Positions 14,097-59,247 of a stretch of 64,000 bases of DNA are shown piece after piece. The position numbers and the translations under genes were made by a program. The stretch's first letter is position 1. Each line of letters starts with the position of its first letter. A model generated the notes under the pieces. That model did not search any database. It worked only from the letters and a program-made list of their open reading frames with translations, and was not told the origin of the DNA. This DNA comes from an uncultured cyanobacterium. GTDB taxonomy: Bacteria > Cyanobacteriota > Cyanobacteriia > PCC-9006 > JAAUQQ01. The stretch covers positions 992,001 to 1,056,000 of the forward strand of contig OY970368.1 in the NCBI GenBank assembly GCA_963718615.1, in the 5' to 3' direction.

Positions 14097-15779
14097 CTAT
14101 ACGGGGCTTAATTGCTTGCTAATTTTGTACATCTCATCATGATTTAGCTTTAAGAGAGGCATACGAATTAAACTCCCATTTAGAGAGATGCTTCCTTGTT
14201 CCCACTCTACTACTGATCTGTTGTAGATATCTATTAAAAGTCTATCTGTAACCGTCTTAACGTCTGCAAGATTCAAGTTTTCGGAGGATAGGATTCTATG
14301 TACGACTCCGTTAAGCAATTGAAGATTAAGCACAGTAATATCTTTTTTTAGCTTCCAAACTGAATGAGTGCCAAGACCAGCACGGCACAATAGTACACTT
14401 ACACATTGAACGTTCTCGACTCTTATTTCAAATATTTCCGATATTACAGAATCACGCTCATCTTGAGGTAAATCTTGAAAACGGTTAAGTTGCTCTATTC
14501 CCTCTTTTGAACGATTTTCAACAGCTTTTGTCATTCTTGCACCTTGTGGTGGAATAGCTGCTTTCGCTTGAATATGTACCACTGTATTAGCGCTTGATTG
14601 ATAGATGAGTAAATCAAATTCTCCCTTGCTCCAATTTTTATTAGAGACGATCCTTAAACCTGGTAGTCTTTCCCATATTTCTAAAGCTTGCTTTAAAAGT
14701 GTGGGTTCAAGATGCTGTGAAACAATATTGTTGAATTGAGTCGTATTGCATCTGTTAAGAACATAGAAAATGTTTCTTGTTGCCAACATTGATCGAAGAA
14801 TATATGGGCTAAATAAATAAGAATGCGAATAATCTATTAAAGGTGGGAAAAAACCTTCACCAGAATTTTCAAAATTCTGATTGACAACATCAATAGTGAA
14901 GAAATTTAATATATTTTCAATTGCAGAACTTTTAACGTTTGTTAAAGCCATTAATAACCTTATAAAAAAGCTTTTAGCATTAAAAACTGCAACCCATTCG
15001 TAAAATTCGTGAAATAGAGTTTCCTTTCTTGTTTCACTGCTTTCATTAAGCCAAAGAAATTCTAAAGCATTTGCAAGACCAATACTGTAGTCTGCATATG
15101 CGAATAGTGCAGCCCTGATCTTACAAAACTCTTCCCATGTTGTCCCAATAGATATTTGGAAAGCGTTTGGCTCTAAAATTGGTATTTCCTTAAAACTATT
15201 TAAACGATATTGAAATAGATCGGCTAATACTCTACACATCAAAGCCATATTAATATTAGGAAGTTGATCCGCTAGTTCAATAAATTCTTGCTTTAAATTA
15301 GGAGCTTCACCAACTAAGAACGTTAAGCTAAGTTCAGTTAAAAGAACATCGTACTCTTCAGCTCTTGAAAATTCTTCATTGGGATGTATAAGCTCAAACC
15401 CTTCCTCGATTTTTCTGACCTCATAGTAACCGCGCCGTACTTCAGGCATAAGTTCGCAAAAATGGGCATAGGATACTAGCTCTCGAAAATCTTTGACGAA
15501 CAGTGCAGTAGCTGAAAAAGCATCGATTGCGCTAACTCCTATTTGTGAAGTGCATTTTCTCAGCAAAGGGATTAAGTAAGAAAGTCTACTACTTAATGCT
15601 TCACCTTCTGCTTGATTCTTAGATATGTTGTGACCAAAGCGCTCACCCTGAATCAGAATGTCGATTACCACAAATAAGCTTGTTAAAACACTCCTAAGCG
15701 GTAACTGAAACATATCAGACTGAACAATTTTGTTGTCAATTTCACCTTCGAAAGAAAAAAGATCATCTCGATCGCTCAT
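14097..15779 (-). CDS. Cassette-borne hypothetical protein with C-terminal PD-(D/E)xK-like nuclease motif
   Basis: AT-rich 560-aa ORF; E...GEFDLLIY...VVHIQAK. Confidence 0.6.
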   Translation of the reverse strand: MSDRDDLFSFEGEIDNKIVQSDMFQLPLRSVLTSLFVVIDILIQGERFGHNISKNQAEGEALSSRLSYLIPLLRKCTSQIGVSAIDAFSATALFVKDFRELVSYAHFCELMPEVRRGYYEVRKIEEGFELIHPNEEFSRAEEYDVLLTELSLTFLVGEAPNLKQEFIELADQLPNINMALMCRVLADLFQYRLNSFKEIPILEPNAFQISIGTTWEEFCKIRAALFAYADYSIGLANALEFLWLNESSETRKETLFHEFYEWVAVFNAKSFFIRLLMALTNVKSSAIENILNFFTIDVVNQNFENSGEGFFPPLIDYSHSYLFSPYILRSMLATRNIFYVLNRCNTTQFNNIVSQHLEPTLLKQALEIWERLPGLRIVSNKNWSKGEFDLLIYQSSANTVVHIQAKAAIPPQGARMTKAVENRSKEGIEQLNRFQDLPQDERDSVISEIFEIRVENVQCVSVLLCRAGLGTHSVWKLKKDITVLNLQLLNGVVHRILSSENLNLADVKTVTDRLLIDIYNRSVVEWEQGSISLNGSLIRMPLLKLNHDEMYKISKQLSPV

Positions 15780-15937: not shown

Positions 15938-16341
15938 GGTAGTGCCTTTAGCTGGGGGATGAGTATGGTGTGGCCATTAGAGAAAGAAAAAGCAAACTGG
16001 GTAAGACCCTTCTGTGCCAATTGCAATGACTCAAGAGCTGCTTCATTGTCCTAACTGTCTATCTGAAGATATCAGCCGTAACGGCTTCAACGATCGCGGT
16101 ACTCAAAGCTATAAATGTCGAGATTGCCGTCGCCGGTTTGTCCTGACTCCGAAATCCCTTCCCTTGAGCGATCTGCGGCAAAGGGTGTCGCGCTTGGTGC
16201 GAAAGGCGCTCTCGTTTTCAAAGAAACAAGAGAACCACGAGGCTGCGATCTGGAATTTCGTTCACCATTACAACCAGCCATTGCGCCTTAAGCAGGCACA
16301 TGCCGCTTCATTCTCTCCAGCACCCACATAATTGGACTACC
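15938..16341 (+). mobile_element. Internally deleted IS1-family element
   Basis: Imperfect terminal IRs GGTAGTGCCTTTAGCTGGGGG / GGTAGTCCAATTATGTGGGTG. ORF 16014..16331 fuses an InsA Zn finger (CPNC..YKCRDC) to an InsB C-terminus (LRQRVSRLVRKALSFSK). Confidence 0.85.
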
Positions 16342-16727
16342 CTAAATTGTATGGGCCAATTCCTGAGTTAGATGGGTGGTTGAGGCGACGAATTCGGATG
16401 TGTTATTGGAAACAATGGCGCAGACCGAGGACTCGCATCAGTAACCTGTTGAAGTTGGGGACACCGAAGCAGCACGCTTTTTCTACTGGCTTGAGCCGGA
16501 AGGGATATTGGCGGTTGTCGCGGACGTTGGCCACGCAGACGGGTATGACAAATGAGTGGTTGGCACAACAGGGATTGCTTTCGATTCGTGACCTATGGAT
16601 GAAAGTCCAGGGCTACGAAGAGAAGCCTGTCAGTTTGTCTAGCAGTTAGGTTGAGAACCGCCCATTGCGGAGCCGCACGATGGGTGGTGTGGGAGGGGGG
16701 ATTCGTGAGGATTCTCCCTATCCCGAT
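16342..16727 (+). mobile_element. 3' remnant of a group IIC-attC intron (maturase C-terminus plus domains V/VI)
   Basis: ELDGWLRRRIRMCYWKQW...SRKGYWR; domain V GAACCGCC..CGGAGCCGCACGATGGGTGGTGT; ends CCTATCCCGAT and is followed by the attC core remainder TGGGCTGC. Confidence 0.88.
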
Positions 16728-16846
16728 TGGGCTGCTGGCAAGACACTCAAGTTAGCGGCAATGCCATAAACTCTGCTTTTCTAGTCGCAATGTTCTGGTG
16801 TTGTTTGTCAACACAAAAATGGAATCGTACTCTGCCGAAATTCCTC

Positions 16847-18427
16847 CTATAACCTGCACGCTTCTAAGCGAGAGAAAAGACTTGGCACTCCTCTAACCCA
16901 ACCTCCCGGTCGGGGTAAATGTCCTAACGGAGCCGATGAATCAAAGATCAAATCATAATACGGTATCCAAATACTTTTTAATCGCCATCCGACGCGGTCG
17001 CCAAACTTTTCATAAGTACTATCATCATAATTGTCATCAAGCTTGCCACCACATTCTAGATAAATTTGCTTCTGAATACTGAAACCAAATTTACCGCTAC
17101 TGTATTTCACCCACAATTCATCAAGGGTGCGGAGATCTAAACAGGGGAACTGTCTTATTTCTTCCTCCCTAACCCAGTCGCTTTCTCTCCGACCAATAAG
17201 CTTGAGTATGATCTTATAAGTTTCATAATCAGCTTCTTTCCATCTCCCAGCCTTTAACAAATCTCGGAGTAAAGTATAGTCCAAACCCCGCTCAGAACTA
17301 AGGTTATCGTGGGATGCTTCAACAGTCAAAGATGAATGTTGGGTGGAAGCAGACTGCTCAGCAACTACCTGTGCTTCAATTGCTGCAATATCTTCATCTC
17401 GTAAACCTAAATATTGCCGATAGTCTTTCAGATCCCTTAGAGATCCTTCACTTATAGGATTCTCCACCTGCATTACCTCAAGCAATGCCTCTTTATATTC
17501 TTGCAGTTTGCGTCGGTACTCTCGATGAGGTTGTAAAACCTCAACCTCAATTGCATGTGCCTCCGCTTCCGACAAGCCAAGTTGTTGTTTCAATACGTGC
17601 AAGACTCTACGAGCTACAGAGGATAATTCATCACGACTGGCAAAACGTTGTAATTCTTTGCGATATCTTAGTTTTGAATTGTCTACAGGTACTTTGGCTA
17701 GCAGAATCTTGTAACCTTCCGCAGCAGTGTAAAACATAGGAGTCATTGCTGGAGCAGCCGCTCTCACTTTGGCTTGAACGTACTCATGTAATTCATCAAC
17801 AGCAATAAAACCATCACTATCTAAATCGGCTGCTCCCGTTGCAATCCCCTCAACTAAATAACGGGTATAAAGTGACAGGTCAGATTCCTCCTGCCAAAAA
17901 GCATACTGGGTAGAGCTAGAGGAGGTTAGAATAGCACGTCCAACACCACCTAACTGTGCCCGGATATCGATATGGTCGTCGTCTCTGACAGGTAAAATCT
18001 TTACATCTCGACCAAATGTTCCACTAAAATCGCAATCTAAAATGACTACCTGTCTACGAGAACGACCATTACTCATCATCTCTTGAATGAATCTAGCTGA
18101 AACAGCAGTAGATTTTGCGAATCTATCCTTATCCTTTCGAGTGTTCCGAGTAGCTAAATAAATCTCTTCATTGTCGTCTTTAATTCCATGACCAGAGTAA
18201 TAGAATAATACCAAATCATTATTCTGGCTCTTAGAAAATAAATCATCTATGGCTTCTTCCATCTCTTGTCTACTTGGATTAGCTAGTAGAGAAGCCTGGT
18301 CAAATCCACCTACTTCGGGGTCTCGTAAAACGCGAGCCATTGCCTCGGCATCTACTCCTGCGCTTGGGAGTGGATTTAACCCCAGTTCATACTCACTCAC
18401 CCCTATCAATAGTGCAATTTTAGCCAT
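16847..18427 (-). CDS. Caspase-like (peptidase C14) plus helical linker plus GUN4-domain protein
   Basis: KIALLIGVSEY, YYSGHG, ILDCDFSG; C-terminal GUN4 motifs (LRDLLKAGRWKEAD.ET, LW..YS.GKFGFSIQK.IY, APLGHLP). Confidence 0.85.
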   Translation of the reverse strand: MAKIALLIGVSEYELGLNPLPSAGVDAEAMARVLRDPEVGGFDQASLLANPSRQEMEEAIDDLFSKSQNNDLVLFYYSGHGIKDDNEEIYLATRNTRKDKDRFAKSTAVSARFIQEMMSNGRSRRQVVILDCDFSGTFGRDVKILPVRDDDHIDIRAQLGGVGRAILTSSSSTQYAFWQEESDLSLYTRYLVEGIATGAADLDSDGFIAVDELHEYVQAKVRAAAPAMTPMFYTAAEGYKILLAKVPVDNSKLRYRKELQRFASRDELSSVARRVLHVLKQQLGLSEAEAHAIEVEVLQPHREYRRKLQEYKEALLEVMQVENPISEGSLRDLKDYRQYLGLRDEDIAAIEAQVVAEQSASTQHSSLTVEASHDNLSSERGLDYTLLRDLLKAGRWKEADYETYKIILKLIGRRESDWVREEEIRQFPCLDLRTLDELWVKYSSGKFGFSIQKQIYLECGGKLDDNYDDSTYEKFGDRVGWRLKSIWIPYYDLIFDSSAPLGHLPRPGGWVRGVPSLFSRLEACRL

Positions 18428-20333
18428 TGTCTATCTCATGAGTAACAAATGCTAGTAAACTGTGAATCTCATCATTATCAGACTCTATATCTAATGCCTT
18501 TCTGAGTTGCTCCTTTGCTAGTTCAAACTCTTTTTGCAGTCTCAAATCTCGACCGTACCCTAACAGTGCTTGAATATAGTTTTCTTTAGTTCGTACTGAA
18601 TCAATCTGAAATCCCCTTGCATAAAGTGCTGACGCTTTACCAAAATCCTCAATCTCTAAGCACGCTGCTGCCATATTAAGTAGAGCACTAAAATGATTGG
18701 GGTTTAAATCTAGTACCTGACTGTATAGATCAAGCGTAGTTGTCATCTCACCCTTCTGATGCAACTCCATTGCTCCTTGATAAATACGATTAGCCTCTGG
18801 CTCCAACTTCTCCAACTCTCTTATTTCCTGGCGGAGTGGATAACGTTTGATTAACCAACGGCGGACAAGTTCAATTTTTACTTTATATGCGGGTGCTTTG
18901 GAATCTTTTATAAAATCTAGGAAATTCCATTCAACCAGTCGTTTTTCAGCATCAACTAATGGTTTAGTCCGAACAACTCCATATCCCTCCAACAACTCTA
19001 GTGGTAGAACTAATTTAGATTCTACTCTGGGTAGCCCAAGTGTTAGAACCTGTCCCACACGAACGTGCTGTAATTCTGTACTGACTACAACTGCCCCTAG
19101 TCTTGGATCATAGGAAGCGATCCAGGCTGTAGAGGGTAACTCACGCATCAGATAGCTATATAACCAGGTTGGAGCACGACCCGTAATGACTATTCCAATG
19201 TTCGTATCAATCTCTTCAGGTAGCTCTAGATTTACGAGATCCTGCGGCTCGATAACCCCACTTTCAGAGAGAAGTTCTATGGTTAACCACTGATATCTTA
19301 AACCTTCATAATCTTGCTGTTCACTTAATTGAAAGCGAACTGAGGCATTAGATGTTTGACTAATGTTACTTTGAATATCTAAATCACTGACTTCTTTGTT
19401 GGCTTTCTTTTGAGCTTCTGCTACAGCCGAAAAGACAACCCGTTCAGGAATGGGCAACCCATCTCGAAACCATGCTAAACCCGCTTCACCAATCTCAATT
19501 GCTCTATCTACAATTCTTTCTACATTTTCACAAATAATTTTCCAGCTTTGTTGCTCTCGTGCGTATCCAAAAAGCGTAAAACATATTAATTGTGTAAAGT
19601 AAGGATGTCCTGCTGAGAGGTTAAGAATTGCTTGTATAGCTGCTGAATCGTACTCTAATATTTCTTTAGCAGGTTCAACAATTAAACGCTTCGCACTCGT
19701 TTCATCAAGCAAACCAATCTCTTGACTAGGCGCTTCTTTGAATAAACTGAGTAACTTTGGCATGTCATCCAGTCGTCGTCCCACAACCGGAATGAGAAAA
19801 AGTTGTTTCTGTCGATGAATGATTGACTGTAAGTAGGGAAAAAAGTGTTCAACTGCTGTCTCTGGGTTATAGCTACTTAAGACATCAAACTCATCCATTA
19901 ACAAGACTAAGTTTCTGCCTCGCAATGCTTCATAAACTTGAGACAGAAAAATGCGAGAGAAAGCACTTGAATCTTCTTTCAGTTCCGTTGCTGAAGGTAA
20001 TGTTATCTCTTCTAATGGCAGTTCAAGTTGATCGACAATTTCCATAGCAAGATAGTGCAACACATCACTAAGAGGTGTTTTGCTTCTATCTTGAAGATCA
20101 AAGAGTACAAAAGAAAACTCGTTCAATCCGACACACCTTGGAATTTGAGAGAGTACAGAAGATTTGCCAATACGCCGTTGACCATGCAGCAAAATAACTT
20201 TTGCACCTGACTTCAGATTATCCTTAACGAATTGAAATAAATTTTCTCGCCCAAAAAACAGATCTGGCTTGTCGATCGGACTGCCAATGTCATAAGGATT
20301 TCTCCGAGATTGTGGAGACATCATAATCATCAA
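18420..20333 (-). CDS. P-loop (STAND/AAA-like) ATPase with inserted Csx3-like domain and C-terminal TPRs
   Basis: NPY..G.P..FFGRE, GQRRIGKSS, LLMDEFD, SAGHPYFTQ; Csx3-like GIVITGRAPTWLY..WIASYDPRLGAVVVST at ~19040-19350; TPR tail. Confidence 0.85.
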   Translation of the reverse strand: MMIMMSPQSRRNPYDIGSPIDKPDLFFGRENLFQFVKDNLKSGAKVILLHGQRRIGKSSVLSQIPRCVGLNEFSFVLFDLQDRSKTPLSDVLHYLAMEIVDQLELPLEEITLPSATELKEDSSAFSRIFLSQVYEALRGRNLVLLMDEFDVLSSYNPETAVEHFFPYLQSIIHRQKQLFLIPVVGRRLDDMPKLLSLFKEAPSQEIGLLDETSAKRLIVEPAKEILEYDSAAIQAILNLSAGHPYFTQLICFTLFGYAREQQSWKIICENVERIVDRAIEIGEAGLAWFRDGLPIPERVVFSAVAEAQKKANKEVSDLDIQSNISQTSNASVRFQLSEQQDYEGLRYQWLTIELLSESGVIEPQDLVNLELPEEIDTNIGIVITGRAPTWLYSYLMRELPSTAWIASYDPRLGAVVVSTELQHVRVGQVLTLGLPRVESKLVLPLELLEGYGVVRTKPLVDAEKRLVEWNFLDFIKDSKAPAYKVKIELVRRWLIKRYPLRQEIRELEKLEPEANRIYQGAMELHQKGEMTTTLDLYSQVLDLNPNHFSALLNMAAACLEIEDFGKASALYARGFQIDSVRTKENYIQALLGYGRDLRLQKEFELAKEQLRKALDIESDNDEIHSLLAFVTHEIDNG

Positions 20334-20408
20334 TCCTGAGCCATGAGATCGAAGAGAAGACAGTAAAACAACTATAAGTAGAACACGTACTCTATACTCA
20401 ACAAGCAG

Positions 20409-21707
20409 CTAACCTGACACAAACCCTTTGGGAATGGCACTAACTAGCTTGCTAACCCATTCAATAACAGAGGGCACTTCGTCCTTATGCTGCCACAAAT
20501 ATCGAATCCCAGTTTTAACTTGCTCTGCTTGCTTGCTGCTCATTAGGTTGAGAAAAACCTTTTGGCGTTGTTGAAGTTCCTCCTCGTTGCTATTCTCGAT
20601 TTCTTTAATTACCCACCACTCCATCATTGACGAGGCAAATGCATAATTTGGTCTGCCCTGTTGCATAGTTCGGATAATTACTCCCCGTTGTTCCAAATCT
20701 GTCAATTCACGCTCTCGTTGACTAAAGACGATGCTGATGTCGCCCAAGTCATAATTCTTACGCTGTAAACGACCTTTTAGATTAGATAGAGCAATCAACA
20801 TTAGAAGTGTCTGTTCCTCCTGATTTGACATTTCCCAGGTTTGTTGGAAAAATTGTTCAGTTGCACTCAGGAAGTCTCGCGTGAATGCTTCAGGATCGGG
20901 CATCTGCCCAGTATGGAGTTTGTCATATAAAAGATAACCAGCATGTTGAATCAGTGCTGGATGTCCATCAGTAATTTCTCGAATCCCCTCCCGCAGTGCC
21001 GTTGTCATTGGCATACAACCTAATAAAGTATCAATTTCACTATCAGTAAATGGTTTGAGAGGTTGAAATAGGTAGTGATTATACCACGGAGACTTATCTG
21101 GCGAGAGCTTGGGTCCAAGTTCGTTGAGCCGACGAAATGAAGTCACGATCATTGAGAGACAACCTTTACTCTGAACTGCCAGGTTACGAGTCTCGCTCAG
21201 GAATATCTCTATGCTGCTCTCCTTATACTGATCATGCGGACGGAAAGCAGCATCATAGTTATCTAGCAGCAGCAGTAGAAACTTATTTTGTTTTCCTATT
21301 TGCTTCAAGAACTGACGTAAGTCATCCTTTGTTGCTTCAGCCTTCCTAAGGGATTGGTCGATCCCAGTTTGTAAAAGGTCATCATCAACAAGTTCGTCCT
21401 TGATCAAGCTTAGGATCTCTCGCCAGAAGGTAGCTGGTAGAAAGGGCATTATGCCCAAGCAGTCCAGGTAGATAATGATAGATTCAGAATGTTCACATCC
21501 ATAGTGTTGCCAAACTTGAGGAGAAATCAGCAGTTCCAAAAAAGATGACTTACCCATCCCCGCTCCACCCCAGATGGCTAAACTGCTACGACTAGCGATT
21601 CGATCAAAAGCAATACCAATTTCAGATGCCCATCCGACAAAGCTTTCTGAAGAAACTAACTTTCCAGGAGAAAAGGGATTTTTTGACATGGCATTCGCTG
21701 AGTCCAA
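20409..21707 (-). CDS. P-loop (STAND/AAA-like) ATPase
   Basis: NPF.PG..FVG, GGAGMGKSS, Walker B LLLLDNYD, TDGHPALIQ. Confidence 0.85.
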   Translation of the reverse strand: MDSANAMSKNPFSPGKLVSSESFVGWASEIGIAFDRIASRSSLAIWGGAGMGKSSFLELLISPQVWQHYGCEHSESIIIYLDCLGIMPFLPATFWREILSLIKDELVDDDLLQTGIDQSLRKAEATKDDLRQFLKQIGKQNKFLLLLLDNYDAAFRPHDQYKESSIEIFLSETRNLAVQSKGCLSMIVTSFRRLNELGPKLSPDKSPWYNHYLFQPLKPFTDSEIDTLLGCMPMTTALREGIREITDGHPALIQHAGYLLYDKLHTGQMPDPEAFTRDFLSATEQFFQQTWEMSNQEEQTLLMLIALSNLKGRLQRKNYDLGDISIVFSQRERELTDLEQRGVIIRTMQQGRPNYAFASSMMEWWVIKEIENSNEEELQQRQKVFLNLMSSKQAEQVKTGIRYLWQHKDEVPSVIEWVSKLVSAIPKGFVSG

Positions 21708-21900
21708 AGGTCTTGATTAGGAGTTTTCCTTTGACTAGCTTAGCCCCACTGATACTTTTTGAGTACTACTCCTACAAATAACGAGAAGCAGCCCAACGTC
21801 GTAGCTGAGCCGCACCCGTCAATCTGCCAATACTGGCGACAACGTCGTCAGGACGGCTCGCTGAGATGTGAATGCTGTCGTGTCGGCTCCAGCGCAGTGT

Positions 21901-22370
21901 GTACGCCCAGCATGGGCGTGAGCTAATGGGGTGAAAGTCCCCTGTGGGAGAACCAGCCATCCAAATGCTCGTATTAATTGGAGCCGAGAGATGGACAACC
22001 ACTAGCCTAAGGCAAGGGCGTCTTCGCGAGAAGGGGTCGGTCGGAAACCAGACTTTTGGATTGCGTCTGCTTTCGGGTAAGTCGCTTTTCTAGGCTCTGT
22101 TTCACCGTGGGAACTCCCTATTAGCGCCAGTGTCACTTGCAATGAGTTTCTGATTGCGCCCAGCTCCTAGCTTCGATCTCCCGAATTCCGAGTCGGGTCA
22201 TCGTGGGCAGATCAGGAGTCACATCCGAGTTTGATGGAAGGGACTTTCACCCTCATCAAGAGGACAGTTCAGCTCTTGAGAGTGCTTCATGTTTGGAAGC
22301 CAAGCTGGCAGAGTTATTTATGGGCTTGCACCGTTATTCATCTGCAACGAATCGCACCCCCTATCCCGAT
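21901..22370 (+). mobile_element. ORF-less group IIC-attC intron remnant (5' end plus 3' tail)
   Basis: Begins GTACGCCCAGCATGGGCG..GGTGAAAGTCC and ends CCTATCCCGAT; inserted at GT|TAGGT. Confidence 0.8.
22046..22357 (-). mobile_element. 5' fragment of a second group II intron (different class, probably IIB/CL) nested in antisense orientation
   Basis: Minus strand begins GTGCGATTCGTT and contains GGGTGAAAGTCCC; the left boundary is approximate. Confidence 0.65.
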
Positions 22371-22406
22371 TAGGTGTTGCTTAGATGTCACTTATCTAAG
22401 AACACT

Positions 22407-23234
22407 TTAAACATTTGCTTGCTGTAAAAGCTTTAAAATAGAAGTTGAACGGGTCATATAGGAAAGCCCAGTATGATGAAACATTGGTGGCACAGATGTT
22501 TCATCCCAAAAATGACCAGACATGATTCCCGCAAGCAATGCAGGTCGCCAAGTCGGATCGTCTATATCCCCGCCAGGACGAAATCCTCTCGCTGGCAAAA
22601 AGACCGGGCTACCACTTGATCCAGAAAAAGACAATCCTGATACAAGAATTATATCGTCTGTCTTTATTTGGTCGTTAGTGAATGATATCTGTGGCAGAGA
22701 AGCTACTGTACATTGACGGGCTACAGGAAGTTTCCATTTTTCATCCCACCAGTGCCGGCCATTCTTCCCTGGAAAACCGATAAAGAAGGATGTTTCCATC
22801 GGTCCAATAATTAGACTATTGGCAAAGTTTTTCTCATCAATAAGGTTTTCAAACTTAAGAATTTCTCTATTTGGATCGAATGGGGTTTCTTCATGGAATA
22901 CAGGTTCAACAAGAATAGAGCAGTCAGAAGATGGGGAAGAGAATAAACAACTTTCTATATTTGCCACATCAAAGAAATCTGTATTCTCTGCAGGCTGGTT
23001 TGATTCATAATATCGTAACTCTATAGAAATCCTATCGAGCTTTAATCCTGGCTTGTCGGGGAATCTTATAGATGGATCAACATTATGTTTGTTGGTGACA
23101 AAAATATTCTTTCCAGTCTGGGAAATCATCCAAAATCCAGTACCACAACCAGATTTTTCGTTTCCTATATCATCCGTAAAATTTACTTTGATGCGGTGGA
23201 TCATCCAAAAAATCTTTGGGTTAAGACCAAGCAT
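22407..23234 (-). CDS. Cassette-borne trypsin-like serine protease
   Basis: GTGFW, VTNKHNV (His), SDCSIL (Asp), SGSSGSPVF (Ser). Confidence 0.82.
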   Translation of the reverse strand: MLGLNPKIFWMIHRIKVNFTDDIGNEKSGCGTGFWMISQTGKNIFVTNKHNVDPSIRFPDKPGLKLDRISIELRYYESNQPAENTDFFDVANIESCLFSSPSSDCSILVEPVFHEETPFDPNREILKFENLIDEKNFANSLIIGPMETSFFIGFPGKNGRHWWDEKWKLPVARQCTVASLPQISFTNDQIKTDDIILVSGLSFSGSSGSPVFLPARGFRPGGDIDDPTWRPALLAGIMSGHFWDETSVPPMFHHTGLSYMTRSTSILKLLQQANV

Positions 23235-23299: not shown

Positions 23300-23545
23300 C
23301 ACCTAACAATTTATTCTCATGCACGATGCCTGATAACTCCCTCCTCTCGCTATTCTCAAGTATCAGCGCCGTATAATCCCCAGCCATGACCTATTACCCA
23401 TGCAATTATGCTGGATAACATCCCTGGTTAGGTATTATCAGGCAACGCCGCATGATAACAACCCATTTCCAGGCATTATCCCCGCACAGCCGCCGGATAA
23501 CATCCCTGAGCAGGTATTATCAGGCATGTCTCAGTATAATCATCC
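23300..23545. repeat. First-cassette core plus ~41-bp periodic array of GATAA..TTATC dyads (attI-like region)
   Basis: CACCTAAC at 23300; ATAA at 23333, 23373, 23415, 23455, 23497 and 23536; near-identical 32-mers at 23413 and 23495. Confidence 0.65.
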
Positions 23546-53301: not shown

Positions 53302-56300
53302 ATGGCATTCGATACAAACCAACCGGCTCAAATAAGTGGGCTAAATGGCTATACTGTCAACCCGATTGTGACGATTGGTGACACGATCGGCGACTACACC
53401 CCGCCAGGGATTCCTGATGGCGTCGGGGCTTATGAATTGGATGACAATACCGTTCGAATTCTGGTTAACCACGAACTGGGTGCAACCAGTGGTTATGCCT
53501 ATTCCTTGGCTAACGGCACAGAATTAGCCGGGGCGCGGGTTAGCTATTTTGATATTGACAAATCGAGTCGAACTGTAGTAGCAGCGGGTCCAGCCTACGA
53601 CACGATTATCAATCGCCAGGGCGAAGGGGTTGATGAAGCTTCAGATTTAGAATTTGGTGGCATTCAACGCTTGTGCTCGGCCCAATATGTACCCGCCCAT
53701 CAATTTGGTGAGGGCATGGGTCTGGTGGATGGGCTTTTCTTCACGGGCGAAGAAACCGCTGGAGGAACGGAATACGTCGTTGACCCGGCAACCCAAACGC
53801 TCTACGCCGTGCCCTGGATGGGACGAGCGGCTTGGGAAAGCGTCACTGAGCTCAATACAGGATCGAGCGACACCGTGGCACTGCTCGCTGGAGATGACCG
53901 AGCAGGTGCTCCCCTGTTGCTGTACATCGGTGAGAAAAATGCCCAGGGAGATGGCAGTCTGCTCGATCGCAATGGACTTGCCCAAGGCAAGCTCTATGTC
54001 TGGGTTTCAGCCAATGGAGACCTTGATCCCAGTCAGTTTAACGGCACCGGCCAAAACCGCGATGGGCGATTTGTTGAAATTGACTTCTACCGGCCAGACT
54101 TGGCCAGTGCCGATGGCTCGTCGGGGTACGATGCCCAGGGCTTTGCCACCCAAGCCCAGCAGGATGTCCTATCCGCAGCGGTGGGAGCGTTCAAGTTTTC
54201 TCGACCGGAGGATGTTAGCACTAACCCAACCAATGGCACCCAGGCTGCTTTGAACTCGACGGGTCGGGGTCAACTCTTTGGCGGAGCCGATACCTGGGGA
54301 ACGACCTATCGCATTGACGTGGACTTCAGCGACCTGAGCAATATTGGAGCCAACATTGACGTCTTATATGACGCGGATGATGCGGGAGCGGGCCAATTTG
54401 CAGGGCCAGACTACGGCTTACGCAGTGCGGACAACATGGACTGGGCCGATGATGGCTATCTGTATCTGCAAGAGGACCGCTCCACTAGTCCCGAAACCTT
54501 GTTTGGGGAAACCTCGGGGGAGGAGGCTTCAATTTGGCGTTTGGATCCCAGCACGGGCAAACTGACTCGCATTGCCCAGATGAACCGCGATACAGGCGTT
54601 CCGACGGGGCAAACCGATGGGGCGATCGGCGAGATCGGCAACTGGGAATCCTCTGGCATTCTGGATGTTTCGATACTGTTTGATGCGGCACCGGGAAGCT
54701 TGTTGATTGCGACAACCCAGGCCCACAGTTTGGTGGATGGGGCGATCGCCGACCAAGGATTAGTCGAAGGCGGCCAAATCTACTTCCTCTCCGGCCCCGC
54801 CACCCTAGAAGGCTATGCGTCACTGCCCGCAGATACCTTTGCGGAAGGTCCCCCGACGGGCGAAGGCATTTCTGGCAATGGCCGGACCGGTCCCTTTGAA
54901 GGACCTCCGGTGCAGGGCTTTAGTGGTGTGCAGTTTGCCCCCGGTGGTGACGGCAGCAACTACTGGTTCCTTTCGGATAACGGCTTTGGTGCCCAGACCA
55001 ATAGTGCTGACTATCTGCTGCGCCTCTATCAGGCCGATCCCAATTTTGCGGGGTCTGAAAATGGCGATGGTTCCGTTGAGATCCAGGGCTTTGTGCAACT
55101 GAGCGATCCTAATAATCTAGTTCCCTTCGATATTCAGAACGGCGCGACCGCCGAGCGGAATCTGACCGGTGCCGACTTCGACATCGAATCCTTCGTGATT
55201 GATGGCAAAGGCGACATCTGGGTCGGTGAAGAATTTGGCCCCTATGTGCTTCACTTTGACAGCACGGGCAAACTGCTGGAAGCACCCATTCCCACGCCAA
55301 ATCTCGCTAATCTCAACACCCTTAATGGTCAAGCTCCGGTTGTAATTGGTCACCGAGGAGCGAGCGGTAGCCGTCCGGAACATACCTTGGCTTCCTATGA
55401 GTTGGCGATCGAACTGGGTGCCGACTTCATCGAGCCGGACCTCGTGGTGACCAAGGACGGTGTCTTGGTTGCCCGCCACGAAAACGAAATCTCCGGCACG
55501 ACAGATGTGGCAGATCATCCTGAGTTTGCCGATCGCCAAACCACAAAGGTGGTTGATGGTACATCCCTCACAGGCTGGTTCGTCGAAGATTTCACCCTGG
55601 CTGAACTGAAAACGCTACGGGCAAAGGAACGGATTCCCGGCACCCGCCCCGACAATACCCAGTATGACGGTCAGTTTGAGATTCCCACTCTAACGGAAGT
55701 CATTGACCTGGTGAAATCCGTTGAAGCAGCAACCGGCAAGACAATCGGCATCTACCCTGAAACCAAGCATCCTACATTCTTGGCGAAGGAAGGCGCTTAT
55801 CTGGACGGTACACCGATCAATCAGGACACCAGCCAGCTTTTGGTGGATACGCTGATCGCCGAAGGGTTTACCGACCCCAGTCGCATCTTCATCCAGTCCT
55901 TTGAAGTTCAAAACCTGATCGAAATTCAGACCCGTCTGGATGCGGAAGGCTTAGGCGACATTCCCCTGGTGCAGCTCTACGGCGACACCACAACGGCGGC
56001 AGACCCGACCGATCCCTTCTCCTTCCCCTACGACATTCGCTATAACGTCGCCCAGGGCAATGACCTAGTTGCTATCTACGGTCAAGATTTCCTTGATGCG
56101 GCAGAAAATCCGCTGTCAGCTGACACGGTCTACGGCGATTTAGACAATGCCACAATTCTGCAAGTCATTAGTGACCAGTATGCCGAGGGCGCAGGTCCCT
56201 GGAAGAACAACTTCTTGCTGCGGGAATCGATTGATCCCAAAGTCGATGGCAACGGCGATGGCAAGGCCGAAATCGGCTCCCAGCTCACGGGCGAAGTCAC

Positions 56301-59247
56301 CTCCTTTGTGGAGGATGCCCATGCCGCTGGGTTGCAGGTGCATCCGTACACGCTGCGGGCCGAGGAAGGTTTCCTGACGCTGAATGCCGAGGGTACGCCG
56401 CAGACCCTGGCTGATGAGATTGTGCAACTGACCCAAATTGGCGTTGATGGTTTCTTCACGGACTTTCCTGGGATTGGGGATGAAGTGCGCGATCGCCTCG
56501 TCGATGATTTCGTCCGCGCCCCACAAAACCCCACGGTTCAGTCGGGTGAAGCGGTAAGCAACCTAGGTGGGTCCAAAGGTTACGAAGGCATGGCCTTTAG
56601 CCCCGATCGCCAGACGTTGTATCCACTCCTAGAAGGCACGGTGTTCGGCGACCCTGCGGGGTCCCTACGCATCTATGAATTTGATACGACCACGAGCGTC
56701 TTCGAAGCACTGGTCGGTCTTTATCAGATGGATGCACCGGACCATGCGATCGGCGATTTCACCCCGGTTAACGACCATGAATTCCTCATCATTGAACGGG
56801 ACGGCGGCCAGGGAGAGACCGCTGAGTTCAAGAAGATCTTCAAGATTGATATCTCAGCTGTCAACGACAGCGGTTTTGTCAAAAAAGAAGAACTGGTGGA
56901 TCTACTCAACATCAGCGACCCCAGCGATCTCAACGGTGATGGCAGCACAACCTACGCCATGCCCTTTGTCACGATCGAAAACGTCTTGGTCCTGGATGAA
57001 GATACGATTTTGGTTGCCAACGACAACAACTATCCCTTCTCCGTGGGTCGTCCTCCGGCCATCGACAATAACGAGATTGTTCAAATCAAGCTGAACCAGC
57101 CCCTGGATCTGGATCCACGCCTAGGCGTTGCAGGGTTGAACAACGTGGGTACAGCGGGTCAGCCCTTTGACACCAGCGCTCCGGCTCAGATGCAGGGCCT
57201 CAATGGCTACACAGTTGATCCCCTCTTCACCGTGGGTGAAACCTATGGCGGTTTTACTCCCACCGGTATCTTTGATGGTTTAGGAGCCTTTGCCCTCGAC
57301 GATGATACGGTTCGTGTCTACGCCAACAGCGAACTGGGGGCTAGCACAGGTTATGCCTATGAGCTGGCTAGCGGTGCAGCGTTGACTGGCGGTCGGGTGA
57401 GCTACTTCGATATCGATAAGGATAGCCTTGCAATTGTCGATGCGGGCTTGGCCTACGATACGATTATCAACCGGGCCGGTGAGGTCGTGGATGAAGCCTC
57501 TGATCTGGAATTTGAGGGTATCGATCGCCTCTGCTCCGCCCAGTACATCGAAGCATACCAGTTTGGCAATGGCATCGGTCTTGAAGATGCGCTCTTCTTC
57601 ACCGGAGAAGAAACCGATGGCGGCACCGAGTTTGTCCTTGATCCAGATACAAACACTCTCTACGCAGTGCCCTGGATGGGTCGTGCGGCCTGGGAAAGTG
57701 TCACCGAACTCAACACCGGTACCACGGATAAAGTTGCTTTGCTGATTGGTGACGATCGGGGTGGTGCTCCGCTCCTGCTCTACATCGGTGAAAAGCAAGC
57801 GGGGGGTAATCTGCTGGAACGCAATGGTCTGGCGGCGGGTAGGCTCTACGTCTGGGCTGCGGATAGCGGTGAGCTCAGTCCCGAAGAATTTAACGGTACC
57901 GGTGAAGACCGCAATGGGACTTGGAACGCGATCGACTACTATCGCCCCGACTTGGCAGGTAACGGTCAGTACGATGCGCTAGGCTTTGCAACCCAGGAAC
58001 ACCAAGACGCTCTGGCGGAAGCCGCAGGTGCGTTCAAATTTTCCCGTCCTGAGGATGTTGCCACCAATCCCGAGGATGGAACCCAAGCGGTGCTGGCTTC
58101 CACGGGACGCGACAGTCTCTTCCCTTCTGATGCTTGGGGGACCACCTACCTGATCGACACCGAATTTGGGGCGGACGGCACACCTGTTGCGGCCAATGTC
58201 AAGGCCATTTACGACGGTGATGATGCTGGAGCTGGTCAGTTTGCTGGACCCGATTACGGCTTGCGTAGCCCAGATAATCTGGATTGGGCCGACAATGGTT
58301 TGATCTACATCCAGGAAGACCGCTCCATCGATTCCTTTGGCGAGGTTTCCGGCGAAGAAGCCTCGATCTGGACTTTAGATCCGGCCACTGGCAAATTGAC
58401 CCGTGTGGCGCAGATGGATCGTTCGGCAGTGCCTGCGGGCCAGAGCGACCCCAGCCCCACGGATATTGGCAACTGGGAATCCTCCGGCATTATTGATGTC
58501 TCGGGTCTGTTTGACAAAGCACCGGGTAGTCTCTTTCTCTTCGGTACCCAAGCCCACAGCCTGCGCGATGGTGTCATCGCCAGCGAGAATCTGGTTCAGG
58601 GGGGACAGTTATCCTTTCTCGTTGCTCCTACAAGTTCTGATAGTTCTGGTGGTGGCGGGAGTCAGAATCTCATAAAGCCTCTAGTTTTATCGGGAACTGT
58701 GGCTTCAGAGACCCTGTTTGGCGGCGAGGGGAATGACATCCTCTATGGCAACGGAGGGGGCGATCGCCTCATCGGCAATGGGGGAGATGACATCCTCTAC
58801 GGCGAACCCGGTGCAGATACCCTCATCGGTGGTGCAGGCAACGATATCCTCTACGGCAACGGCGGTGAAGACCGACTGATTGGCGATGGCGGCAACGACA
58901 TCCTCTACGGCGAAGCGTCATCAGAAATCATCATCGGGGGTACCGGCAATGACACGATCTATGGCAATGGTGGTGGGGACTACATTGATCCCGGCACTGG
59001 CCTAGATTGGGTGTGGGTCGGCCAAGCGGGTGGAGCCACTGTGGTTCTCCATGAAGGCGAAGGATATGTCACCGTGGTGGGCTTCAAAGCCGGGACGACC
59101 CAGTTTGCCCTGGGTTCCAGTCAGCTTCAACCCAGTGATTTAACCTTTGGCCAAGAGGGCAGCCATGCTCGTATTCTCCATGGTTCTGATTTACTGGCTG
59201 TTGTTGAGTGGACGTCTCCTCAGACCGTGAGCAGTGCTTTTGCATAA
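53302..59247 (+). CDS. Giant multidomain phosphoesterase: PhoX-like x2, phytase-like domain with inserted GDPD, RTX repeats
   Basis: Duplicated ~490-aa module (LCSA, FFTGEE, GRAAWE, FSRPED, QED, WESSG); LSDNGFG..DIES..EEFGP and G.EGMA..NDNNYP halves; IGHRGASG..PEHT..DGFFTDFP; GGxGxDxLxG repeats. Confidence 0.88.
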   Translation: MAFDTNQPAQISGLNGYTVNPIVTIGDTIGDYTPPGIPDGVGAYELDDNTVRILVNHELGATSGYAYSLANGTELAGARVSYFDIDKSSRTVVAAGPAYDTIINRQGEGVDEASDLEFGGIQRLCSAQYVPAHQFGEGMGLVDGLFFTGEETAGGTEYVVDPATQTLYAVPWMGRAAWESVTELNTGSSDTVALLAGDDRAGAPLLLYIGEKNAQGDGSLLDRNGLAQGKLYVWVSANGDLDPSQFNGTGQNRDGRFVEIDFYRPDLASADGSSGYDAQGFATQAQQDVLSAAVGAFKFSRPEDVSTNPTNGTQAALNSTGRGQLFGGADTWGTTYRIDVDFSDLSNIGANIDVLYDADDAGAGQFAGPDYGLRSADNMDWADDGYLYLQEDRSTSPETLFGETSGEEASIWRLDPSTGKLTRIAQMNRDTGVPTGQTDGAIGEIGNWESSGILDVSILFDAAPGSLLIATTQAHSLVDGAIADQGLVEGGQIYFLSGPATLEGYASLPADTFAEGPPTGEGISGNGRTGPFEGPPVQGFSGVQFAPGGDGSNYWFLSDNGFGAQTNSADYLLRLYQADPNFAGSENGDGSVEIQGFVQLSDPNNLVPFDIQNGATAERNLTGADFDIESFVIDGKGDIWVGEEFGPYVLHFDSTGKLLEAPIPTPNLANLNTLNGQAPVVIGHRGASGSRPEHTLASYELAIELGADFIEPDLVVTKDGVLVARHENEISGTTDVADHPEFADRQTTKVVDGTSLTGWFVEDFTLAELKTLRAKERIPGTRPDNTQYDGQFEIPTLTEVIDLVKSVEAATGKTIGIYPETKHPTFLAKEGAYLDGTPINQDTSQLLVDTLIAEGFTDPSRIFIQSFEVQNLIEIQTRLDAEGLGDIPLVQLYGDTTTAADPTDPFSFPYDIRYNVAQGNDLVAIYGQDFLDAAENPLSADTVYGDLDNATILQVISDQYAEGAGPWKNNFLLRESIDPKVDGNGDGKAEIGSQLTGEVTSFVEDAHAAGLQVHPYTLRAEEGFLTLNAEGTPQTLADEIVQLTQIGVDGFFTDFPGIGDEVRDRLVDDFVRAPQNPTVQSGEAVSNLGGSKGYEGMAFSPDRQTLYPLLEGTVFGDPAGSLRIYEFDTTTSVFEALVGLYQMDAPDHAIGDFTPVNDHEFLIIERDGGQGETAEFKKIFKIDISAVNDSGFVKKEELVDLLNISDPSDLNGDGSTTYAMPFVTIENVLVLDEDTILVANDNNYPFSVGRPPAIDNNEIVQIKLNQPLDLDPRLGVAGLNNVGTAGQPFDTSAPAQMQGLNGYTVDPLFTVGETYGGFTPTGIFDGLGAFALDDDTVRVYANSELGASTGYAYELASGAALTGGRVSYFDIDKDSLAIVDAGLAYDTIINRAGEVVDEASDLEFEGIDRLCSAQYIEAYQFGNGIGLEDALFFTGEETDGGTEFVLDPDTNTLYAVPWMGRAAWESVTELNTGTTDKVALLIGDDRGGAPLLLYIGEKQAGGNLLERNGLAAGRLYVWAADSGELSPEEFNGTGEDRNGTWNAIDYYRPDLAGNGQYDALGFATQEHQDALAEAAGAFKFSRPEDVATNPEDGTQAVLASTGRDSLFPSDAWGTTYLIDTEFGADGTPVAANVKAIYDGDDAGAGQFAGPDYGLRSPDNLDWADNGLIYIQEDRSIDSFGEVSGEEASIWTLDPATGKLTRVAQMDRSAVPAGQSDPSPTDIGNWESSGIIDVSGLFDKAPGSLFLFGTQAHSLRDGVIASENLVQGGQLSFLVAPTSSDSSGGGGSQNLIKPLVLSGTVASETLFGGEGNDILYGNGGGDRLIGNGGDDILYGEPGADTLIGGAGNDILYGNGGEDRLIGDGGNDILYGEASSEIIIGGTGNDTIYGNGGGDYIDPGTGLDWVWVGQAGGATVVLHEGEGYVTVVGFKAGTTQFALGSSQLQPSDLTFGQEGSHARILHGSDLLAVVEWTSPQTVSSAFA

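Follow-up and report, generated by a model that had tools for sequence, protein, structure and literature searches.

A three-gene cassette in the genome of an uncultured cyanobacterium encodes a STAND-type NTPase into which a Csx3 domain has been inserted, together with a second NTPase and a caspase. The cassette occupies positions 16847 to 21707 of a 64,000-nucleotide stretch (GenBank assembly GCA_963718615.1, contig OY970368.1, positions 992,001 to 1,056,000 of the forward strand), and this whole stretch is referred to below as the window. Csx3 is otherwise found as an accessory domain of type III CRISPR systems (PMC6546367). The inserted domain belongs to the Csx3/Crn3 family, keeps four residues of the face that contacts cyclic tetra-adenylate (cA4) and has lost all three histidines required for cleavage; judged from these residues, it looks built to sense cA4 and not to act as a ring nuclease.

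The cassette consists of three co-oriented open reading frames (ORFs) on the minus strand: gene A (20409–21707, 432 amino acids (aa)), gene B (18420–20333, 637 aa) and gene C (16847–18427, 526 aa), of which B and C overlap by 8 bp (18420–18427). The GC content of genes A to C is 0.39–0.43 and rises to about 0.55 on either side, beyond 13 kb and 23.5 kb. A preliminary description, made from the sequence alone, had noted three co-oriented AT-rich genes with an 8-bp overlap between the last two and had likened the architecture to that of NLR proteins; the ORFs and base composition bear out the former, and the Pfam domains, a STAND NTPase with TPRs beside a caspase-GUN4 protein, bear out the latter. 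The features of the cassette, all on the minus strand unless no strand is given, are as follows.

21813–21788: terminator-like hairpin, for upstream transcription (consensus match only)
21708–21806, minus strand: about 100 bp upstream of A, kept in the related locus L049 (blastn block); probably the promoter and 5' untranslated region of A
20409–21707, minus strand: gene A, P-loop NTPase with helical and winged-helix module, without repeats and without Csx3 (ORF, translation, profile comparison)
19401–20333, minus strand: B residues 1–311, nSTAND1-type NTPase and helical domain (Pfam nSTAND1, PF20703, 31.1 bits, cut-off 27.1)
19005–19400, minus strand: B residues ~312–443, inserted Csx3 domain with leader and flexible linkers (alignment with six Csx3-less homologues)
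19044–19262, minus strand: B residues 358–430, Pfam Cas_csx3 core within the insert (Pfam)
18819–19004, minus strand: B residues ~444–505, winged-helix segment common to Csx3-less homologues (alignment; model)
18420–18818, minus strand: B residues 506–637, TPR repeats and stop codon, with 8 bp at the end shared with C (Pfam)
17678–18427, minus strand: C residues 1–250, caspase (Peptidase_C14) of the 'EACC1-associated type' (Pfam E-value 1.1e-20; NCBIfam NF047832, 162.4 bits, cut-off 140)
17312–17677, minus strand: C residues 251–372, helical linker with an internal repeat (translation; similarity to two genomic paralogues)
16847–17311, minus strand: C residues 373–526, tetrapyrrole-binding GUN4 domain and stop codon (Pfam GUN4, PF05419, E-value 5.7e-40, 137.2 bits, cut-off 29.2)

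The insert in gene B is a Csx3 domain

The insert of about 130 aa sits in what is otherwise a linker of about 10 residues between a conserved 'AVAEAQ' helix and the winged-helix segment. An insert of about 100 aa had been described earlier; the motif string on which that description was based lies at B residues 347–419 and the insertion is clean, while its extent proved larger (residues ~312–443, window ~19005–19400). Profile and structure comparison with Csx3, the check that had been proposed for the insert, gave a match in both cases. The insert was matched by Pfam Cas_csx3 (PF09620; E-value 9.2e-26, 90 bits, cut-off 21), by the NCBIfam equivalog model TIGR02579, 'ring nuclease Crn3/Csx3' (84.3 bits, cut-off 55.4), and by five PADLOC Csx3 models (E-values 1e-19 to 1e-27), scores far above what chance would give, and the chains of the solved structures of A. 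fulgidus Csx3 (AfCsx3) matched it by sequence with an E-value of 1e-13.

When modelled alone with AlphaFold 2, the insert reached a predicted local distance difference test score (pLDDT) of 86.3. Foldseek aligned this model with 3wzg, 6yud, 3wzi, 3wzh and 6vjg at E-values of 1e-9 to 2e-8, template modelling (TM) scores of 0.64–0.85 and root mean square deviations of 1.5–3.3 Å, with 33–35% identity to 6yud, 3wzi and 3wzg, for which the TM scores are 0.67–0.85; the next-best match was the cA4-bound CARF-TIR protein Cat1 (E-value 2e-5). In the model of full-length B, low-confidence linkers at residues 321–326 and 421–435 bracket the domain. By profile, by sequence match to solved structures and by predicted fold, the insert is a true Csx3/Crn3 family domain.

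Its nearest relatives are the N-terminal Csx3 domains of cyanobacterial Csx3-AAA proteins of about 325 aa, to which it is 55–59% identical with the leader strand included. Csx3-AAA is a type III accessory family, cluster 35 of Shah et al. 2018 (PMC6546367), and its Synechocystis member is Slr7080 (PMC9676260). As in these proteins, the Csx3 domain of the window is joined to a P-loop ATPase; there, however, a small AAA domain follows Csx3, whereas here Csx3 lies inside an unrelated nSTAND1 NTPase. The domain may have been copied from a type III-associated cyanobacterial Csx3-AAA protein into the linker that precedes the winged helix of B.

Loss of the histidine face and retention of the ligand face

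In the AfCsx3 dimer, cA4 is contacted mainly by a 'D69 face' formed by I22, S44, G45, R46, I49, D69 and R71, and cleavage also requires the 'H60 face' of a second dimer, formed by H57, H60 and H80, the active site being composite (Athukoralage et al. 2020, PMC7371418). In that study, the H60A variant has no detectable ring cleavage yet retains cA4 binding and polymerisation into filaments, H80A is strongly impaired in cA4 cleavage, and H60A and D69A complement each other when mixed. AfCsx3 is also reported there to bind an RNA tetranucleotide at the same face as cA4 and to cleave RNA, an activity that is absent from H60A and reduced in H57A and H80A.

Residues of the insert were assigned to AfCsx3 numbering by HMMER and MAFFT alignments. 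On the ligand face of the window's B, G385, R386, D409 and R411 correspond to G45, R46, D69 and R71, while R397, P400 and E420 stand in place of H57, H60 and H80. The same division is seen across the five STAND-Csx3 fusion proteins described below: G45 and D69 are present in all five, R46 in four (Pro in P0007) and R71 in four (Lys in one), and none of the histidines is kept, H57 being replaced by Arg or Gln, H60 by Pro in 5/5, and H80 by Glu, Gln or Arg. For comparison, 30 loci with canonical cyanobacterial Csx3 were taken, of which 29 were translated, one of these in the wrong frame; all 28 valid domains keep H57, H60, H80, D69 and R71. A second Csx3 was found neither in the window's genome nor in the genome of the L049 host.

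Because H57, H60 and H80 are all replaced and the genome holds no other Csx3 to supply the histidine face, the insert most likely cannot be a Crn3-type ring nuclease and has kept ligand binding alone. The proposal that it is a Csx3/Crn3 ring nuclease was therefore upheld as to family, by profile, structure match and fold, and is not supported as to activity.

The STAND-Csx3 fusion is very rare

In a collection of 5.8 billion proteins, 999 matched B, and among the 120 matches listed Cas_csx3 was present in only five: the window's B, P0007 (78% identity), P0008 (58%), P0009 (49%) and P0010 (48%). The other listed matches cover only the NTPase half and have TPR, WD40, kinase or PBP-like tails. 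When 1.84 billion cluster representatives were searched exhaustively by HMMER with a profile of the insert and the winged helix, there were 477 matches, two of which (P0007 and P0009) covered the full 159 positions. Csx3 was found in 65 of 401 sampled genomes of the phylum, in a frame of more than 503 aa only in the window's genome; the fusion was absent from the 60 other relatives searched, including seven same-family genomes (62–93% complete). Among 185,579 species genomes, one other locus matched the full query, namely L049, from a metagenome-assembled genome of the Leptolyngbyaceae. In a metagenome scan, none of 24 loci extended beyond residue 115 of the 159-residue query, and all were Csx3 or Csx3-AAA proteins. 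The STAND-Csx3 fusion is therefore very rare. In the literature found on Csx3 with STAND or caspase no STAND-embedded Csx3 is described, and the apparent Csx3 matches in papers on type III-E systems are to Csx30/Csx31.

The longer STAND-Csx3-TPR proteins P0009 and P0010 end in a CHAT-like region of about 190 aa (Pfam 24 and 19 bits, cut-off 24) that keeps the His of the 'SGHG' motif and has Gly or Thr at the position of the catalytic Cys; this domain may be an adaptor and not a protease. The third-best match to the insert profile, P0365, is a caspase-Csx3-Csx3-partial AAA fusion whose first Csx3 lacks H60 and H80, and P0494 has the order Csx3, AAA, TPR, WD40, with a Csx3 that is degenerate at residues on both faces. 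Taken together, the predicted domains of P0009/P0010, P0365 and P0494 show non-catalytic Csx3 repeatedly coupled to caspase-fold and NLR-like parts. The third-closest homologue of C, the caspase-GUN4 protein P0134, lies on a contig of 326,273 bp, the same figure as for the contig of P0008, which is the sole link between P0134 and P0008; no A homologue from the contig of P0008 was present among the 120 listed of 523.

Other long Csx3 architectures were noted during the searches: caspase-Csx3-Csx3-AAA (P0365), Csx3-AAA-Csx3 of 447 aa (P0366), Csx3-Csx3-GTPase-like (P0416) and Csx3-AAA-TPR-WD40 (P0494). Several of the Csx3 copies in these proteins lack catalytic or ligand-face residues.

Genes A and B encode a pair of related NTPases

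The start codon of B is likely the ATG at 20324, and the database record is of 634 aa. The NTPase contains a Walker A motif (GQRRIGKSS), a Walker B motif (LLMDEFD) and the motif GHPYFTQ, the residues of which are invariant in nine aligned homologues. The AlphaFold 2 model of full-length B has a pLDDT of 87.5 and a predicted TM score of 0.79; within the NTPase most 10-residue blocks have a pLDDT of 84–98, with lower values at residues 1–10 (50), 151–160 (65) and 191–200 (78). The closest solved structures found with Foldseek are the archaeal AAA+ proteins 2qen and 2fna, and Orc1/Cdc6. An AAA+ fold is evident in the model, in which the helical domain is followed by a winged helix, and B belongs to nSTAND1. 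The winged-helix segment, in which helices and strands are modelled at residues 444–497, is 42–61% identical (tblastn) in 54 loci with a Csx3-less B. Towards the C-terminus several TPR families match at residues 515–633, TPR_11, TPR_19 and TPR_12 above their Pfam cut-offs, and residues 512–635 are modelled as paired helices with a pLDDT of 86–98 per 10-residue block.

Gene A likely starts at the ATG at 21689 (database record, 426 aa). It has a Walker A motif (GGAGMGKSS) and a Walker B motif (LLLLDNYD) in which 'DN' is a minority variant: among 120 listed relatives of A, the pair is DD in 97, DN in five and another in four, the motif not being found in 14. Pfam AAA_22, AAA_16, NACHT and nSTAND1 all match A below threshold, nSTAND1 with 18 bits. 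Direct BLASTP of A against B was not significant (E-value 0.23). In a profile-profile comparison with hhalign, the A family (13-protein profile) and the B family (9-protein profile) aligned over 339 columns with a probability of 97.4% and an E-value of 1.1e-11; the alignment runs from the NTPase through the helical part to the winged helix, with the Csx3 segment of B left opposite a gap. On the strength of this profile comparison, and not of direct BLASTP, A is a distant paralogue of the NTPase core of B, without repeats and Csx3. PADLOC defence models gave nothing significant against A and B outside the Csx3 domain.

The A family comprises 523 proteins at an E-value of 1e-30 or below. An A homologue was found by tblastn in 44 of the 54 Csx3-less B loci, several of the 10 loci without one being short or cut, and no relative of the caspase, linker or GUN4 domain of C was found by tblastn in the 54. 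The A+B NTPase pair is thus widespread in cyanobacteria, and what is rare is only the Csx3 insertion and its pairing with a caspase. The cassette had been put forward as a new module; this applies to these two rare elements and not to the widespread A+B pair or to caspase-GUN4 proteins, which are common.

Gene C encodes a caspase-GUN4 protein

The catalytic pair of the caspase, H80 and C132, is invariant in 44 aligned homologues. The linker that follows is the least conserved part of C, with 48% identity to L049 and a ratio of non-synonymous to synonymous substitution rates (dN/dS) of 0.21. The GUN4 region is also matched by the C-terminal part of the PADLOC model PD-T4-6 (E-value 6.7e-43); nothing was found in the literature on PD-T4-6 about its GUN4-like C-terminus. 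Caspase-GUN4 proteins are common in cyanobacteria, with 2395 at an E-value of 1e-20 or below. No match to SAVED or CARF was found in A, B or C with Pfam, PADLOC and NCBIfam, and the candidate sensor, Csx3, is on a separate protein from the protease.

The cassette contains no small EACC1-like gene 5' of C, the upstream gene being B with its 8-bp overlap. Two paralogues of C are present in the window's genome, both 49% identical to it, and each directly follows a conserved ORF of 143 aa. These modules, a 143-aa ORF followed by caspase-GUN4, lie at genome positions 5049897–5052307 (L135) and 5884682–5887200 (L136), and their small ORFs are 90% identical to each other. The 143-aa ORFs contain a patch of small residues, 'KSGAAAFLMGVL', that fits the published description of EACC1; they are candidate EACC1 genes unconfirmed by Pfam and NCBIfam models.

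When B residues 440–637 were co-folded with C, the median score was 0.58 (runs 0.67, 0.58 and 0.54), compared with 0.00 for the best of three controls. Agreement of contacts between runs was at least 61%, and the pLDDT of the partner was at least 73. The mark applied to such co-folds is reached by 58 of 80 solved complexes and by two of 110 mismatched pairs; with a score of 0.60 or below it is reached by seven of the 80 solved complexes and by both of the passing mismatches, and the result was rated as 'weak support'.

The cassette is conserved as a unit in a second host

In L049, too, the genes run in the order A-B-C and B overlaps C by 8 bp; the identities are 83% for A, 78% for B and 61% for C. 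Comparison of the window with L049 by blastn gave one block of 4,994 bp at 76% identity (window 16848–21806, L049 7521–12493) and none in the flanks. In both genomes the cassette is GC-poor relative to its surroundings, and its 3' end adjoins transposase debris of unrelated kinds, in L049 a split transposase of the ISAzo13 type. One core protein encoded in the flank has 59% identity between the hosts and 74–78% in same-family genomes without the cassette. With this one gene as comparator, A (83%) and B (78%) are more alike between the hosts than expected for vertical descent, which points to horizontal transfer. Mobilisation of the three genes as one cassette, as had been claimed, is supported by the trio with its overlap in L049 and by DNA homology that ends at the cassette edges; no mechanism of movement is evident. 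At the sought empty insertion site in same-family genomes, the two flanking genes lay on different contigs of fragmented assemblies.

The dN/dS values relative to L049 are 0.067 for A, 0.176 for B and 0.149 for C, which shows purifying selection on all three genes. The synonymous distance (dS) relative to L049 is uneven (A 1.35, B 0.71, C 1.86) and hints at recombination within the cassette, or at saturation. As to its build-up, the cassette may be a recombination of a common NTPase pair with a CRISPR-derived Csx3 and a caspase-GUN4 from another system, the third part being of a kind usually found behind a small EACC1 gene.

A source of cA4 and a proposed mechanism

The window's genome, a single contig of 6.10 Mb, contains two complete type III-B modules. 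The first, at ~2.183–2.190 Mb (2183006–2190071, L130), comprises a membrane accessory gene (Mem_02/C3a55), Cas10b and Cmr3-6; of its surroundings 10 ORFs were tested, none of which proved to be a CARF or SAVED effector. The second, at ~5.225–5.235 Mb, comprises Cas1, a CARF-HEPN Csx1, Cmr6-3, Cas10b and a CARF-WYL protein. The Cas10b profile scores are 619 and 674 bits, and both Cas10 proteins contain YAGGDDF, with GGDD intact. Since two GGDD-intact type III-B loci are present, a source of cA4 in trans exists. The L049 host has a GGDD Cas10b on another contig. Among 400 other genomes sampled from the phylum, 51 have Cas10b of this type, as do 17 of 46 in one family.

That the window holds no cas gene or CRISPR array was confirmed: genome-wide searches place Cas10 and Cas1 outside it, and none of its 13 tandem-repeat rows has CRISPR-like geometry. 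The earlier suggestion of a system acting 'outside any cas locus' accordingly holds for the window, but not for the genome, with its two complete type III-B loci and intact cyclase motif. Of the co-occurrence proposed with type III Cas10 or with the cyclic-oligonucleotide-based antiphage signalling system (CBASS), the former was seen in both hosts, as GGDD Cas10b; no SMODS/CBASS cyclase was found in the complete genome that includes the window.

In the mechanism proposed here, the insert would be a non-cleaving receptor for cA4, which would be made in trans by the type III-B systems on detecting foreign RNA. Because Csx3 binds its ligand as a dimer, binding would pair or stack B protomers and so license ATP-dependent oligomerisation of A and B. 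The oligomer would activate caspase C by proximity, via the C-terminal region of B, and C would cleave cellular targets of the host, leading to dormancy or death; GUN4 may direct or gate the response through tetrapyrrole metabolism. We infer the responsiveness to cA4 from sequence, and the scheme as a whole, from a Csx3 dimer of two B protomers to cleavage with gating or aiming by GUN4, is the most likely of the readings and is considered equally likely to be right or wrong.

Several observations weigh against this scheme. The Cas10 genes, at 2.184 and 5.232 Mb, are 1.2 and 4.2 Mb from the window at 0.992–1.056 Mb. Large filamentous cyanobacteria often have type III systems, and the presence of Cas10 in both fusion hosts, two genomes only, is weak evidence consistent with a link. 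No conserved protease or third gene was found by ORF clustering in Csx3-less A+B loci, the commonest extra family occurring in six of 55, and the co-fold of B with C, with its weak support, defines no interface. In P0365 the caspase His is replaced by Tyr and the second Csx3 is degenerate. On the histidine face, H80 is Asn in four of the five nearest Csx3-AAA relatives and is thus not universally conserved; on the ligand face, the closest homologue, P0007, is the one with Pro at R46, and I49 is replaced in four of the five fusions. Within B, the Csx3 segment has a dN/dS relative to L049 of 0.31 on 80 codons, compared with 0.14–0.19 elsewhere. Given that this is the highest value in B, ligand binding by the insert may be relaxed or retuned; the segment is under purifying selection, though it is the least constrained part of B.

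Alternative readings

A possible, if doubtful, alternative is that the insert no longer senses a type III cyclic oligoadenylate (cOA). It might recognise something else (an RNA oligonucleotide, a different nucleotide or a product of phage) or have only a structural or dimerising role, and the cassette would be an ordinary STAND-caspase system with the TPRs as trigger. This would fit the lack of linkage to cas loci, the variation at R46 and I49, the raised dN/dS of the insert, the binding of an RNA tetranucleotide by AfCsx3 at the same face (PMC7371418), the degeneration of both faces in other long fusions such as P0494, and the parent A+B family, which operates without Csx3 in 54 loci. It is opposed by the conservation of D69, R71 and G45 across fusions that are only 48–78% identical, by a dN/dS well below 1, and by the presence of cyclase-competent type III-B systems in both hosts, together with a CARF-HEPN Csx1 in the window's genome.

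It is unlikely that the cassette is not anti-phage and instead forms a programmed-cell-death switch in stress or development, or a proteostasis switch, which GUN4 would tie to tetrapyrrole status and which Csx3 and the NTPases would regulate. GUN4 binds porphyrin and acts as a regulator, for which Kaur et al. suggest sensing of photosynthetic status (PMC7159879), caspase-GUN4 proteins are common in cyanobacteria, and A and B lack a significant PADLOC defence match outside Csx3. The cassette nevertheless shares its low-GC island with remnants of transposases and with other defence-like genes, a PDC-S45 protease among them; the identities of A and B between the hosts, against 59% for the flanking core protein, indicate horizontal transfer typical of defence genes; and Csx3 is otherwise a type III accessory domain (PMC6546367).

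That the insert is an active Crn3-type ring nuclease, whose degradation of cA4 would end or dampen type III signalling or make B limit itself, is very improbable. It passes the threshold of the NCBIfam equivalog model for 'ring nuclease Crn3/Csx3', it has kept D69 and R71, both required for catalysis, and the genome has no other recognised Csx3; against this, the three histidines are lost in 5/5 fusions, AfCsx3 H60A is inactive and H80A strongly impaired (PMC7371418), and the composite site would need a histidine face that no other Csx3 supplies. Least credible of all is an RNase effector, as which Kaur et al. 2020 read Csx3 in VMAP ternary systems, counting it with the RNase effectors of conflict systems (PMC7159879): Csx3 was first described as a Mn-dependent deadenylase, but the histidines required for RNA cleavage (PMC7371418) are all absent here and the domain lies inside the NTPase module, where a sensor or regulator is expected, and not in a terminal effector position.

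Relation to known systems

With Csx3/Crn3 of A. fulgidus (AF_1864; PDB 3WZI, 6YUD, 6VJG) the insert shares its fold, family and D69 ligand face; it differs in the loss of H57, H60 and H80, so that no ring-nuclease site is expected, in having no adjacent cas genes and in being paired with a caspase. The nSTAND1 and EACC1-caspase systems of Kaur, Burroughs, Iyer and Aravind (2020, 2021) are related through both B, which passes the nSTAND1 model, and C, which passes the model for EACC1-associated caspases, and the mobile, island-borne, NLR-like design is common to both. In the accessible text of these papers, nSTAND1, EACC1-caspase pairs, GUN4-caspase fusions, nSTAND1 within EACC1 systems and a mobile two-STAND operon are described, whereas Csx3 is mentioned only as an effector in VMAP ternary systems and not inside a STAND NTPase (PMC7159879, PMC8195603). 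In the EACC1-caspase two-gene system EACC1 precedes the caspase, a position held here by B. The two-STAND operon (nSTAND2), as far as it is described there, resembles the paired paralogues A and B, but both Walker A motifs are intact in the present case.

Among worked-out systems, the type III-B SAVED-CHAT/PCaspase cascade of Haliangium ochraceum comes nearest; in it, binding of cOA to a sensor domain leads to oligomerisation, and a caspase-fold protease is activated with abortive infection as the outcome (bioRxiv 10.1101/2023.06.23.546230). The mechanism proposed here follows the same logic. It differs in that the sensor is Csx3 and not SAVED/CARF, sensor and protease are bridged by an ATP-dependent STAND pair, a separate orthocaspase-GUN4 takes the part of protease, the module is unlinked to the CRISPR locus, and the expected ligand is cA4, compared with cA3 there. 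CalpL (SAVED-Lon) is reportedly a second cOA-activated protease.

In Avs and other NLR-like STAND defence systems with protease effectors, a caspase-like protease is under the control of a STAND NTPase that senses through repeats, and a STAND NTPase with repeats would control one here (Evans et al. 2025, bioRxiv 10.1101/2025.11.14.688446). The sensors of those systems bind phage proteins via their repeats, whereas the present NTPase contains an embedded domain for binding a small molecule, and the known protease substrates EACC1, MBL and Pepco are not encoded in the cassette.

Surroundings of the cassette

The cassette is enclosed by a low-GC island at ~13.5–23.5 kb, outside which the GC content is about 0.55. 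Just upstream of it lies a gene for a 275-aa trypsin-like protein (22407–23234, minus strand) that matches Pfam Trypsin_2 below threshold and the PADLOC candidate defence family PDC-S45 with an E-value of 1e-15. The most AT-rich stretch (GC 0.35) contains an ORF of 560 aa (14097–15779, minus strand) without a match in Pfam, NCBIfam or PADLOC. Its neighbours in a protein atlas are hypothetical proteins of about 540–565 aa, mainly from Pseudomonadota, with NERD in 10% of the members of one related cluster, and its C-terminus has, by eye only, a nuclease-like D...QxK pattern. The PDC-S45 match and the 560-aa ORF suggest that the whole low-GC stretch is a defence island.

Directly 3' of gene C, two ORFs of 105 aa (16014–16649, plus strand) represent mobile-element debris, one being an IS1 InsA zinc-ribbon with a DDE_Tnp_IS1 fragment and the other a fragment of a group II intron maturase (GIIM). 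A 16-nt direct repeat is found on both sides of the cassette (16716–16731 and 22359–22374). It was rejected as an attachment site or target-site duplication: its 13-nt core, with one mismatch allowed, occurs 51 times in the genome, compared with about 7 expected, and 0 times in L049, and it is a dispersed short repeat.

A promoter scan found nine sites, compared with a mean of 10.1 in shuffled sequence and hence no excess, and Rfam gave no match between 12500 and 24500 at an E-value of 0.1 or below. Of public sequencing runs, four DNA runs from a single study of biofilm metagenomes contain 0.07–0.21 of the words sampled, and no RNA run is listed. At the GC-rich edge of the island there is a non-coding 41-nt tandem repeat (23413–23521, 2.7 copies, 70% matches). 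Further away, tandem repeats of 27, 54 and 108 nt lie at 58728–58975 within an ORF of 1981 aa (53302–59247) and appear, by eye, to encode glycine/aspartate-rich nonapeptide-like units.

Significance

The cassette is best seen as a variation on two known kinds of system, cOA-sensor effectors and STAND-caspase systems. If the proposed mechanism is true, it would provide the first Csx3 used as a sensor instead of an off-switch, and the first cOA input into a STAND/NLR-type ATPase. It would also add a type III effector whose gene is distant from all cas genes; surveys based on loci, confined to a few kb around cas10, are by their construction unable to find such genes. Should the reading prove wrong, the cassette would remain a clean example from nature of a CRISPR accessory domain that was inserted into another protein and lost its catalytic site.

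The system is compact, with three genes and with predicted separation-of-function residues for ligand binding (D409/R411), ATP (K57 of B) and proteolysis (C132), which let one ask how the binding of a small molecule licenses STAND oligomerisation and caspase activation in bacteria. In its widest form, which is put forward tentatively, the cassette would pass the cA4 signal of adaptive CRISPR immunity, as activating ligand, to an innate NLR-type STAND pair that resembles an apoptosome, through a Csx3 turned from enzyme into receptor, and on to a caspase, with GUN4 coupling the response to chlorophyll and tetrapyrrole metabolism, and it would be portable to any type III host.

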